NCBI RefSeq assembly: GCF_044647545.1
Contig: NZ_CP172818.1
Strand: one strand, 5' to 3'
DNA from: Escherichia coli
GTDB taxonomy: Bacteria; Pseudomonadota; Gammaproteobacteria; Enterobacterales; Enterobacteriaceae
DNA: 64,000 nt
This document shows, one piece after another, positions 5,242-16,216 of the stretch. Every line of letters starts with the position of its first letter. Positions within the stretch are counted from its first letter, which is position 1. The position numbers were made by a program, and so were the translations under genes. The notes under the pieces were generated by a model, which worked only from the letters and a program-made list of their open reading frames with translations, was not told where the DNA came from and did no database searches.

Positions 5242-5289
5242 TTGCCAAAGTAAAACAGTGTAAAAGGTATGTAACAGACCATTGACTGA

Positions 5290-12091: not shown

Positions 12092-13390
12092 ATGCGTAAA
12101 ATTAAAGGGTTACGTTGGTATATGATCGCACTGGTGACGCTCGGCACCGTGCTTGGTTACCTGACGCGTAACACTGTGGCGGCAGCTGCGCCAACTCTGA
12201 TGGAAGAGTTAAACATCTCCACCCAACAGTATTCCTATATCATCGCAGCGTATTCTGCTGCTTATACGGTCATGCAACCGGTAGCGGGTTATGTACTGGA
12301 TGTGCTGGGTACGAAAATCGGTTATGCAATGTTTGCTGTACTGTGGGCCGTATTCTGTGGTGCAACCGCGCTGGCAGGTAGTTGGGGTGGCCTGGCTGTT
12401 GCTCGTGGTGCGGTCGGTGCCGCGGAAGCCGCGATGATTCCGGCGGGTCTGAAAGCCAGCTCCGAATGGTTCCCGGCGAAAGAGCGTTCCATCGCGGTAG
12501 GTTACTTTAACGTAGGTTCTTCGATTGGTGCGATGATTGCGCCGCCGCTGGTGGTATGGGCAATCGTGATGCACAGCTGGCAGATGGCATTTATCATCTC
12601 CGGTGCGTTGAGCTTTATCTGGGCGATGGCATGGCTGATTTTCTACAAGCATCCGCGCGACCAGAAACATCTGACCGATGAAGAACGCGACTACATTATT
12701 AATGGTCAGGAAGCCCAGCACCAGGTTGACACAGCGAAGAAAATGTCCGTTGGTCAGATCCTGCGCAACCGTCAGTTCTGGGGTATCGCGCTGCCGCGCT
12801 TCCTGGCAGAACCGGCATGGGGTACTTTTAACGCGTGGATCCCGCTGTTCATGTTTAAAGTTTACGGCTTTAACCTGAAAGAGATCGCGATGTTTGCCTG
12901 GATGCCGATGCTGTTTGCTGACCTCGGTTGTATCCTCGGTGGTTACCTGCCGCCGCTGTTCCAGCGTTGGTTTGGTGTGAACCTGATCGTTTCCCGTAAG
13001 ATGGTCGTAACGCTGGGTGCTGTGCTGATGATTGGCCCGGGTATGATCGGTCTGTTCACCAACCCGTATGTCGCGATTATGCTGCTGTGTATCGGTGGTT
13101 TTGCTCACCAGGCACTGTCTGGCGCACTGATTACGCTCTCTTCTGACGTGTTCGGTCGTAACGAAGTGGCGACGGCGAACGGTTTAACCGGGATGTCCGC
13201 ATGGCTGGCAAGTACGCTGTTTGCACTGGTAGTCGGTGCACTGGCTGACACCATCGGCTTCAGCCCGCTGTTCGCAGTTCTGGCAGTGTTCGACCTGTTA
13301 GGTGCGCTGGTTATCTGGACCGTGTTGCAGAACAAACCGGCGATTGAGGTGGCGCAGGAATCACATAACGATCCCGCACCGCAACATTAA
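12092..13390 (+). CDS. exuT: Hexuronate transporter (MFS)
   Basis: Start at [10 protein letters not shown] with upstream tgagg RBS gives 432 aa. Confidence 0.85.
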
Positions 13391-13414
13391 CGCTTAATGT
13401 AAGTCGTAATGACG

Positions 13415-13440
13415 AAGCCGCCTCTTCAGGCGGCTTTTTC
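13415..13440 (+). terminator. Rho-independent terminator after exuT
   Basis: aagccgcc-tcttca-ggcggcttttt. Confidence 0.6.
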
Positions 13441-13530
13441 AATCATGCGATTTATATTTTAACAATGGCATACGCATGCATAAAGTGGTATAATAACTTT
13501 GTCTGCCGCATTCCACTCCTGGAGACGCAT

Positions 13531-14307
13531 ATGGAAATCACTGAACCACGCCGTTTGTATCAACAACTTGCCGCTGATCTGAAAGAGCGCATCGAACAGG
13601 GCGTCTATCTGGTGGGTGATAAACTGCCTGCCGAACGCTTTATTGCCGATGAAAAAAACGTCAGCCGCACCGTGGTTCGTGAAGCCATCATCATGCTGGA
13701 AGTTGAAGGCTATGTCGAAGTGCGTAAAGGTTCAGGTATTCATGTGGTTTCCAACCAGCCGCGCCATCAGCAATCGGCTGACAATAATATGGAGTTTGCC
13801 AATTACGGTCCGTTTGAGCTACTGCAAGCCCGCCAGCTCATCGAAAGTAATATTGCCGAGTTCGCGGCAACTCAGGTCACAAAACAGGACATCATGAAAT
13901 TGATGGCCATCCAGGAGCAGGCACGCGGCGAACAATGCTTCCGTGATTCCGAGTGGGATTTGCAGTTCCATATTCAGGTAGCCCTGGCGACGCAGAACTC
14001 CGCCCTGGCGGCTATCGTTGAAAAAATGTGGACCCAGCGTAGTCATAACCCGTACTGGAAAAAACTGCACGAACACATTGATGCCCGTACCGTCGATAAC
14101 TGGTGTGATGACCACGATCAAATCCTCAAAGCGCTGATTCGCAAAGATCCTCATGCTGCTAAGCTGGCAATGTGGCAGCACCTGGAAAACACCAAGATCA
14201 TGTTATTTAACGAAACCAGCGACGATTTCGAGTTCAATGCCGACCGCTATCTGTTCGCCGAAAACCCGGTGGTGCATCTCGATACAGCCACCAGCGGCAG
14301 TAAATGA
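13531..14307 (+). CDS. exuR: GntR-family hexuronate regulon repressor
   Basis: Start at [12 protein letters not shown] gives 258 aa. Confidence 0.9.
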
Positions 14308-14318
14308 AATTCCTGTCC

Positions 14319-14346
14319 GACAGGCGCTACAGTGCGCCTGTTTGTC
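14319..14346 (+). terminator. Rho-independent terminator after exuR
   Basis: caggcgc-tacagt-gcgcctg followed by tttgtc. Confidence 0.5.
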
Positions 14347-14651
14347 TCGTCGGTAAGCGAAAAGTATAAAGTGTCAGCCTGTGTAAATCCTCTCGCCTCC
14401 CTCCCCTGCATTCAGCAAAATCAGACTCCACGGACATGTAATTTTGATAACGAACAACGTTGACCTTTGTTACAATTAGATTCAATTTGAATTTATGCTT
14501 TTGAATGCTTTCTTATCTCACGATTTAACAGGGAATAGTTCAGGCTGTGTTGATGTATCAAACCCGCAAAACATACCAAAACAGCAATAACATTGCGGTA
14601 GTGCATCATTTAAAACCAGCGTGGCGTTAACCGATTCACCAGGAATAATGA

Positions 14652-15314
14652 ATGGAACTTTTGACCCAATTGCTGCAAGCCCTGTGGGCGCAGGATTTTG
14701 AAACCCTGGCCAATCCGTCGATGATTGGCATGTTGTATTTTGTCTTGTTTGTCATTTTGTTCCTTGAAAACGGCTTGCTTCCGGCGGCCTTTTTACCGGG
14801 CGACAGTTTACTGGTACTGGTCGGCGTATTGATTGCGAAAGGCGCGATGGGCTATCCGCAAACGATTCTGCTGCTGACCGTTGCCGCCAGCCTCGGTTGC
14901 TGGGTCAGCTATATTCAGGGGCGATGGCTGGGCAATACCCGCACCGTACAAAACTGGCTATCTCATTTACCCGCGCATTATCATCAACGCGCACACCATC
15001 TTTTTCATAAACACGGTTTATCGGCGCTGTTAATTGGTCGCTTTATTGCGTTTGTCAGAACACTGCTGCCGACGATTGCCGGGTTATCAGGGCTGAATAA
15101 CGCGCGCTTTCAGTTCTTCAACTGGATGAGTGGTCTGCTGTGGGTATTGATCCTGACAACTCTGGGTTACATGCTCGGCAAAACGCCGGTATTTTTAAAG
15201 TACGAGGACCAGCTGATGTCATGCCTGATGCTGCTCCCGGTGGTGCTGCTGGTGTTTGGCCTGGCAGGTTCTCTGGTTGTGTTATGGAAAAAGAAATATG
15301 GAAATCGGGGGTAA
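14652..15314 (+). CDS. yqjA: DedA-family inner membrane protein
   Basis: 220 aa ORF. Confidence 0.9.
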
Positions 15315-15317
15315 GGG

Positions 15318-15701
15318 ATGCAAATACCTCGCATGTCACTTCGCCAGCTAGCCTGGTCCGGCGCTGTTTTACTTCTGGTCAGCACACTATTGCTGGCCTG
15401 GTCCGCGGTTCGCCAGCAAGAGTCTACGCTGGCGATTCGTGCCGTTCATCAAGGGACAACGATGCCAGACGGTTTTTCGATCTGGCATCACCTTGACGCT
15501 CACGGCATTCCTTTCAAAAGTATCACCCCCAAAAACGACACTCTGTTAATTACCTTTGACTCCAGCGACCAGAGCGCCGCCGCAAAAGCGGTCCTCGACA
15601 GAACATTGCCCCATGGCTACATCATTGCGCAGCAGGACAATAACAGTCAGGCTATGCAGTGGCTGACCCGGTTGCGGGATAACTCTCATCGCTTCGGATA
15701 A
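15318..15701 (+). CDS. mzrA: Modulator of EnvZ/OmpR
   Basis: 127 aa ORF with a single N-terminal TM segment. Confidence 0.85.
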
Positions 15702-15847
15702 CTTCCTGTTATCTGAAACAGATCACTCACTTTGGTGATTTCACCGTAACTGTCTATGATTAATGGGGCGGTGGTTAACACGACCGCTTCGTTGTCTGGA
15801 CAATCGTTCCTTTGTAATAGGTCCGAATCACAATGGAAGGTTCAAGA

Positions 15848-16216
15848 ATGAAATACCGCATCGCTTTAGCTGTTTCTCTCTTTGCTCTTAGTGCCGGTAG
15901 TTATGCCACTACCCTGTGTCAGGAAAAGGAGCAAAATATCCTTAAGGAGATCAGCTATGCCGAAAAACACCAAAACCAGAATCGTATTGACGGTCTGAAT
16001 AAAGCCCTGAGTGAAGTCCGGGCCAACTGTTCAGATAGCCAACTGCGTGCCGATCATCAGAAGAAAATCGCAAAGCAGAAAGATGAGGTGGCGGAACGCC
16101 AGCAAGATTTAGCCGAGGCGAAGCAAAAAGGCGATGCAGATAAGATTGCCAAACGCGAACGGAAACTGGCAGAAGCGCAGGAAGAGCTGAAAAAGCTGGA
16201 AGCGCGCGACTACTAA
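15848..16216 (+). CDS. yqjC: DUF1090 periplasmic protein (signal peptide, coiled-coil)
   Basis: Start at MKYRIALAVSLFAL gives 122 aa. Confidence 0.8.
   Translation: MKYRIALAVSLFALSAGSYATTLCQEKEQNILKEISYAEKHQNQNRIDGLNKALSEVRANCSDSQLRADHQKKIAKQKDEVAERQQDLAEAKQKGDADKIAKRERKLAEAQEELKKLEARDY

Follow-up and report, generated by a model that had tools for sequence, protein, structure and literature searches.

The gap between exuR and yqjA is, in our reading, the complete control region of yqjA-mzrA, with every part of it in use; we give this reading a probability of roughly 0.85. The region is an ordinary and mostly known regulatory spacer: its promoter, its Cpx and OmpR inputs, the small open reading frame (ORF) yqiM and a CsrA crosslink are already found in databases and papers. 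The only new item is a covarying hairpin in the leader RNA, with its geometric relation to the CsrA site and to yqiM, and it is a modest addition to what is known.

In the window (the whole 64-kb stretch of Escherichia coli chromosomal DNA that was analysed), the exuR stop codon ends at position 14307 and the yqjA ATG lies at 14652, which yields a true gap of 344 bp (14308-14651). The interval singled out by the earlier note, 14347-14651, is contained in this gap. The gap aligns to K-12 MG1655 without indels and with 6 SNPs, its coordinates differing throughout by 3,233,121, and a 561-bp query spanning the gap has matches in 5,422 of the 5,426 complete E. coli genomes, many of them 100% identical. 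The genes annotated in identical E. coli genomes are exuR, yqiM or 'hypothetical protein', yqjA and mzrA. Indeed, yqiM (b4787) is annotated in the K-12 MG1655 RefSeq record (3247668-3247751, which maps to the window without indels), and in strains that share 100% identity with the window the same ORF is called by PGAP (WP_212734158.1, hypothetical protein); the earlier description of the interval as carrying no assigned feature was therefore wrong.

For comparison, the locus was fetched from 80 Enterobacteriaceae species, in 78 of which exuR ends upstream of yqjA. Across these 78 loci the shortest gap measures 251 bp, the longest 474 bp and the median one ∼343 bp. It had been considered longer than the exuR terminator and the yqjA promoter would need; its length is nevertheless conserved (median ∼343 bp, 79 species), and a probable terminator, the promoter(s) and a long leader together fill it. 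We attribute the conserved spacer length to the leader hairpin described below. Conservation across 79 species is blocky, and the conserved blocks coincide with the proposed elements. The near-invariant block 14351-14400 holds four pentamers (GTAAG, GTATA, GTCAG and GTAAA); GCAAAATCA (14415-14423) is kept in 79/79 species; the TTTGTTACAATTAGAT block is highly conserved, its core TGTTACAAT being kept in 75/79; ACAGGGAAYAGTTCAGG (14528-14544) is conserved among Enterobacteriaceae species; and GCGTGRCGTTAACCGAT is conserved along with the yqjA Shine-Dalgarno sequence and ATG. The features are listed below in window coordinates.

14320-14341, plus strand: probable exuR terminator hairpin, ACAGGCGC-N6-GCGCCTGT, followed by a weak U-tract (TTGTCT), from the inverted repeat and folding.
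14353-14368, plus strand: distal CpxR-like direct repeat GTAAG-N6-GTATA, centred near -68 from 14428, from a motif scan.
14373-14387, plus strand: proximal CpxR-like box GTCAG-N5-GTAAA, centred at -48, with 2 mismatches to GTAAA-N5-GTAAA, from a motif scan.
14393-14428, plus strand: promoter core, with a -35-like TCGCCT (14393-14398), a 17-bp spacer, the -10 CAAAAT (14416-14421) and the annotated start at 14428.
14428-14651, plus strand: yqjA-mzrA 5' leader of 224 nt, annotated as 5'UTR at K-12 3247549-3247772, offset checked.
14447-14476, plus strand: probable second sigma-70 promoter, with ATAACG (GTGACG in other genera), an 18-bp spacer and the extended -10 TGTTACAAT (14468-14476), from a relaxed scan.
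14480-14492, no strand assigned: palindrome ATTCAA-T-TTGAAT, from an inverted-repeat search and dinucleotide shuffles.
14508-14572, plus strand: CsrA CLIP-seq peak (peak_296 of Potts 2017, Supplementary Data 1), with the ACAGGGA motif at 14528-14534.
14531-14632, plus strand: long imperfect leader hairpin, ∼100 nt, from the RNAalifold consensus on a MAFFT alignment.
14547-14630, plus strand: yqiM small ORF of 27 codons (84 nt), with a GTG start and a TAA stop 21 nt before the yqjA ATG, from the ORF list and K-12 b4787.
14641-14645, plus strand: yqjA Shine-Dalgarno sequence AGGAA, which includes a second GGA, a candidate second CsrA contact.
14652-15314, plus strand: yqjA coding sequence (DedA family), first gene of yqjA-mzrA, from the ORF list and the PGAP and K-12 annotations.

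The leader hairpin and the CsrA site

A conserved ACAnGGA sequence, the core of the CsrA binding consensus, was recognised in the leader before the CLIP-seq data were consulted. Of 79 species, 70 retain this motif, at a median position of -124, and it is rare, with 11 occurrences on both strands of the 64-kb window (128 kb). CsrA crosslinks to it in vivo: peak_296 lies on the yqjA 5'UTR at K-12 3247629-3247693 (logFC 1.37, padj 0.010; Potts 2017) and has its summit near window position 14541. A second GGA belongs to the yqjA Shine-Dalgarno sequence, as CCAGGA is found at -13 from yqjA in 72/79 species. Peak_296 does not reach this GGA, and a CsrA contact there is inferred. In the csrA mutant, ribosome footprints on yqjA rose significantly (+0.53 log2), and the changes in RNA (+0.47) and in translation efficiency (+0.07) were not significant; for mzrA, footprints (+0.99 log2) and RNA (+0.53) both rose significantly (Potts 2017, Supplementary Data 2). 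The main text of that paper does not name yqjA. Derepression in the csrA mutant is stronger for mzrA than for yqjA, and a second CsrA CLIP-seq peak of the same study (peak_297; window 15191-15326, plus strand) stretches over the last part of yqjA and the ribosome-binding site of mzrA (GGGGGUAAGGGAUG).

RNAalifold applied to the whole leader over 28 diverse genera returned no structure, because the alignment was too poor, and a closer group was therefore used. The hairpin model was obtained by RNAalifold from a plain MAFFT alignment (A2) of 23 Escherichia, Citrobacter and Salmonella leaders. Its base is formed by GG/CC and GUUCAGGCUG/CAGCGUGGC, its middle tier by UGAUGUAU/GUGCAUCA, and its apex by CCGCAA (14564-14569) and UUGCGG (14593-14598) around an A-rich loop of 23 nt. 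In A2, 97.6% of the cells are paired, compared to 27–51% when the partners were slid, and 30 cells are double-sided, compared to 0–7 in the slid controls; the covariation score was reached by none of 500 shuffles. As an example of compensatory change, GCUG/CAGC of E. coli is replaced by GCCG/CGGC in E. albertii and Citrobacter. A covariance model built from A2 matches the leader in all 80 sources. In the resulting alignment of the 80 loci (A3), which is model-fitted and leans towards structure, 86.7% of the cells are paired, compared to 32–40%. In the most distant genera, the covariance model aligns to parts of the hairpin only. Apical stems of differing sequence are present in other genera (GCGAC/GUCGC, AAGCGG/CCGCUU, CGGC/GCCG). 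The E. coli hairpin taken alone is not unusually stable (z = -1.12), and the stability of the leader relative to shuffles is not significant.

The apical two thirds of the hairpin are free to vary and tolerate an ERIC-like insertion or a deletion. In Buttiauxella noackiae (L078, ∼1160-1400), the gap reaches 474 bp, since the hairpin carries an ERIC-like insertion in its apical part: a 1-mismatch search located the ERIC2 primer sequence, with one mismatch, at L078 1353-1374, and the inverted-repeat finder and the exact ERIC pattern gave no match to the insertion. Pseudescherichia vulneris (L053, 1250-1500) has no hairpin altogether; a deletion leaves only ∼60 nt from the start site of the TACAAT promoter to yqjA, and the ACAnGGA block is gone as well, with CGTTAACCGA and the Shine-Dalgarno sequence retained. 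In most genera (L040, L044, L037, L038 and others), a small covarying hairpin occurs early in the leader, ∼20–40 nt after TACAAT, such as GUAAGC-UUUU-GCUUAC or GUUAGU-GCUU-GCUAAC; it is degenerate in Escherichia (window 14500-14517).

The model places ACAGGGA at the 5' foot of the covarying ∼100-nt hairpin. In the consensus and in the minimum-free-energy structures, the first two Gs of the motif pair with the CC at 14631-14632, which forms the 3' foot of the helix; 9 nt separate this foot from the GGA in the yqjA Shine-Dalgarno sequence. Neither structure presents the upstream GGA in a hairpin loop. The hairpin would thus bring the motif near the Shine-Dalgarno sequence, and one CsrA dimer could therefore bridge two sites 110 nt apart. 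We propose that transcripts from both promoters would carry the long leader with its CsrA site, and that most likely a single dimer spans both GGA sites and lowers expression modestly; the effect of CsrA on yqjA-mzrA is small.

CsrA-repressed leaders of the glgC, cstA and pgaA type have two GGA sites, one of which is located at the Shine-Dalgarno sequence. The yqjA leader shares with them the ACA-N-GGA motif, the in vivo crosslink, the second GGA in the Shine-Dalgarno sequence and the higher ribosome occupancy in the csrA mutant. It differs from them in that the GGA sites are ∼110 nt apart and joined only via a long hairpin, the upstream GGA is at the foot of a helix rather than in a hairpin loop, and the effect is small with an unchanged translation efficiency.

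The small ORF yqiM and other readings of the leader

The hairpin encloses yqiM almost wholly, and the ribosome-binding region of this ORF coincides with the CsrA CLIP summit; for this reason, CsrA probably also limits yqiM translation. In Escherichia, the hairpin would then contain a translated upstream ORF of 27 codons whose ribosome-binding site is the CsrA site. Putting these elements together, we tentatively consider the ∼100-nt hairpin as an uncharacterised cis-regulatory RNA across Enterobacteriaceae that sets the CsrA site beside the Shine-Dalgarno sequence and is opened by yqiM translation in Escherichia, a proposal to which we give clearly less than even odds.

A different account, which we consider unlikely, is that yqiM is a functional small protein gene and that the 3' half of the gap is conserved through selection on its product. 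The ORF is annotated in K-12; RiboReport lists it among the sORFs of Weaver 2019, which were identified by initiation-site ribosome profiling and validated by epitope tag and western blot; and the C-terminal NSNN..VH.LKPAWR is common to six Escherichia lineages. Several comparative results nevertheless argue against selection on the product. Within the leader, conservation is lowest over the body of yqiM (14547-14615), and the variation found there consists of compensatory RNA pairs. Salmonella and C. amalonaticus lack the start codon, the ORF is absent from Salmonella and most Citrobacter (several Citrobacter species have none), and ORFs ending at the same TAA occur in a minority of genera only, with different lengths and sequences, so that yqiM is not found as a conserved coding sequence in the related genera. 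Within Escherichia, 1-nt indels swap the N-terminal frame: in other species of the genus, they fuse a different frame (ATG 14495) to the shared C-terminus. Finally, both yqiM SNPs relative to K-12 are nonsynonymous. As the peptide sequence is not conserved, yqiM is more likely, from these alignments, a lineage-specific upstream ORF rather than a conserved protein. Like the upstream ORFs of the Weaver 2019 set (pssL, yoaL and others), it is a short ORF in a 5'UTR that is reported to be translated, and it ends 21 nt before the main start; unlike them, it does not overlap the downstream ORF, its peptide is unconserved and its frame changes within the genus.

Two further ORFs were noted in the leader. 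In E. coli, a second one is present in another frame (ATG 14495, 31 codons, 14495-14590, plus strand); in E. albertii and other Escherichia (L003-L005, L007), 1-nt indels at two positions join the frames into an ORF of 44 codons. In Klebsiella, Kluyvera, Kosakonia, Buttiauxella and others, a 5-codon mini-ORF (ATG TAC CAG GAA nnn TGA; -18 to 0 from the yqjA ATG) abuts the yqjA start. It was judged incidental because E. coli, with GATTCACC in place of GATGTACC, lacks it and because it includes the Shine-Dalgarno sequence itself.

YqjA is required for growth at alkaline pH. This requirement lends some appeal to the idea of the leader hairpin as a sensor RNA, responding for instance to pH or cations like the alx leader and directly setting the expression of yqjA, with CsrA binding being incidental. 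The hairpin covaries, its basal internal loops are sequence-invariant across genera (GGAAUAG opposite CGUUAACC), and it matches no known Rfam family: a scan of 13000-16000 against Rfam 15, with E values up to 10, gave weak chance matches outside the gap only and none within 14308-14651. Yet no expression platform is visible, as no terminator follows the hairpin and the Shine-Dalgarno sequence lies outside of it, and the apical two thirds vary and accept an ERIC-like insertion or a deletion; we hold a sensor to be improbable. The alx leader itself (PRE, a yybP-ykoY family RNA) is located ∼9 kb upstream in the window and resembles the yqjA leader in being a long structured 5' leader that precedes an inner-membrane stress protein and has a CpxR-like box close by. 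The yqjA leader differs by the lack of an Rfam match, by its single long hairpin and by the absence of an evident expression platform. The ygjR-alx spacer carries a perfect CpxR consensus, GTAAAACAGTGTAAA, at window 5250-5264 (plus strand), ∼200 bp upstream of the alx start, and alx is listed in the CpxR iModulon.

Transcription of yqjA-mzrA

A GC-rich hairpin directly 3' of exuR would stop exuR transcription. Its folding energy is -17.5 kcal/mol (z = -3.07), and a GC-rich hairpin occupies the same position in many genera, with a differing sequence. A consensus terminator scan did not call it, because its T-run is short; the tail is only UUUGU.

About 75 bp past this hairpin lies a weak sigma-70 promoter with its annotated start at 14428 and CpxR-like repeats upstream. 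The 5'UTR used by Potts 2017, drawn from RegulonDB and a start-site data set, spans K-12 3247549-3247772; position 3247549 corresponds to window 14428, exactly 7 nt after the invariant CAAAAT and thus within the 6–8 nt expected of a sigma-70 -10 element. The xCAAAATC sequence is present in 79/79 species, and the -35 is weak. A strict promoter and terminator scan of the gap gave nothing useful and left the CAAAAT promoter uncalled.

The earlier note had guessed at an envelope-stress promoter, for instance of the CpxR type, and had suggested a scan of the interval for regulator motifs. Such a scan did find CpxR-like repeats in the gap, at 14353-14368 and 14373-14387, and the guess is supported by the published regulation of yqjA-mzrA by CpxA/CpxR (Gerken 2009) together with the invariant CpxR-like pentamers just upstream of the annotated start. 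GGTAAG is near-invariant across 79 species, and GTCAG-N5-GTAAA is present in 73/79, with a 36-bp distance to the -10 that is fixed in 68 of these 73. Repeats centred at -48 and -68 and held at a fixed distance from the -10 are the layout expected of an activator of the OmpR/PhoB family such as CpxR. At the 2-mismatch stringency, the CpxR box has 60 matches in the window compared to 45.6 expected and is not rarer than chance, so that the assignment of 14373-14387 relies on conservation and position and not on the rarity of the motif. From these sequence features, we infer that the distal and proximal repeats are CpxR sites; the published CpxR box may be elsewhere in the gap. Phosphorylated CpxR most likely binds the repeats and recruits RNA polymerase under envelope stress. 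As in Cpx regulon promoters of the cpxP, degP and ppiA type, direct repeats resembling GTAAA-N5-GTAAA stand just upstream of a weak -35, and Cpx-dependent induction has been published; the difference is that the proximal half-site at yqjA is GTCAG, not GTAAA, and that the match alone is not above chance.

Published data agree with a Cpx-responsive region. According to Gerken 2009 (PMC2727453), two promoters upstream of yqjA drive the co-transcription of yqjA and mzrA; a yqj::lacZ fusion rose 5.6-fold in a cpxA* background and two-fold when EnvZ or OmpR was missing, and it dropped ∼five-fold in activated envZ mutants. The RegulonDB CpxR target list includes yqjA and mzrA, and direct CpxR binding is attributed to Yamamoto and Ishihama. 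RpoD genomic SELEX (Shimada) places a constitutive promoter in the exuR-yqjA spacer.

The conserved TGTTACAAT, ∼55 bp downstream of the first promoter, is probably a second, extended -10 promoter that would supply basal expression, with a predicted start near 14483-14484. Such a promoter is plausible and would agree with the two promoters reported for the operon and with the constitutive RpoD site; the 16-bp invariance at this place could instead mark an RNA or regulator site. The hexamers predicted by Shimada (TTGTCT-17-TATAAA, 14342-14370) were not adopted, because their -35 part is unconserved. The AT-rich stretches reported by the earlier note are present here, with a GC content of 25–27% at 14440-14530. 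The palindrome-bearing tract that it pointed out also exists, as the perfect ATTCAA-T-TTGAAT at the predicted start of the second promoter; it is statistically unremarkable (two 6+6 palindromes in the gap compared to 0.41 expected, P ∼0.08, 1000 dinucleotide shuffles) and unconserved outside Escherichia. The invariant TTTGTTACAATTAGAT also contains GTTACA, which we take to resemble an OmpR half-site. As a basis for the published OmpR repression it was set aside as low-confidence, the second half-site being poor.

An older literature holds that a sigma-E promoter in the gap (p2 of Dartigalongue 2001) is a main driver. Gerken 2009 (PMC2727453) cites the sigma-E-dependent p2, and yqj::lacZ rose in the rseA mutant, by only 1.5-fold. 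Against this, a motif scan of the gap found no GGAACTT-N15-17-TCAAA-like site with a suitable -35 and spacing, the text of Rhodius 2006 on the sigma-E regulon does not mention yqjA, and the RpoE-SELEX peak listed for the locus falls within yqjB and not upstream of yqjA. For these three reasons the sigma-E promoter itself is doubtful, and a leading role for it is improbable. A FliA ChIP site is known within yqjA (Fitzgerald 2014, motif AAAGCGACCAATTAACAGCGCCGATAAA); it is the reverse complement of window ∼15017-15044 (minus strand), i.e., an intragenic, antisense sigma-28 site.

That the gap encodes an independent small RNA, the 'small transcript' of the earlier note, is highly improbable: the spacer is long, conserved and rich in strongly conserved blocks, and it is bound by an RNA-binding protein, but it has no Rfam match at E values up to 10 and no intrinsic terminator between the promoters and yqjA, the CLIP-seq authors annotate and use it as the yqjA 5'UTR (Potts 2017), and its conservation runs seamlessly into the yqjA ribosome-binding site.

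Bearing on envelope stress control

yqjA-mzrA joins the Cpx and EnvZ/OmpR envelope-stress systems, and its control region therefore matters for the cross-talk between them. A by-product of this analysis is a precise, conservation-backed map of the region, including the uncatalogued leader hairpin, and this map gives concrete mutations for testing the post-transcriptional control of YqjA and MzrA. If the hairpin does act as a cis-regulatory RNA in the way tentatively proposed here, the connection that MzrA makes between the Cpx and EnvZ/OmpR systems would be adjusted by carbon-storage (Csr) status together with translation of the leader.
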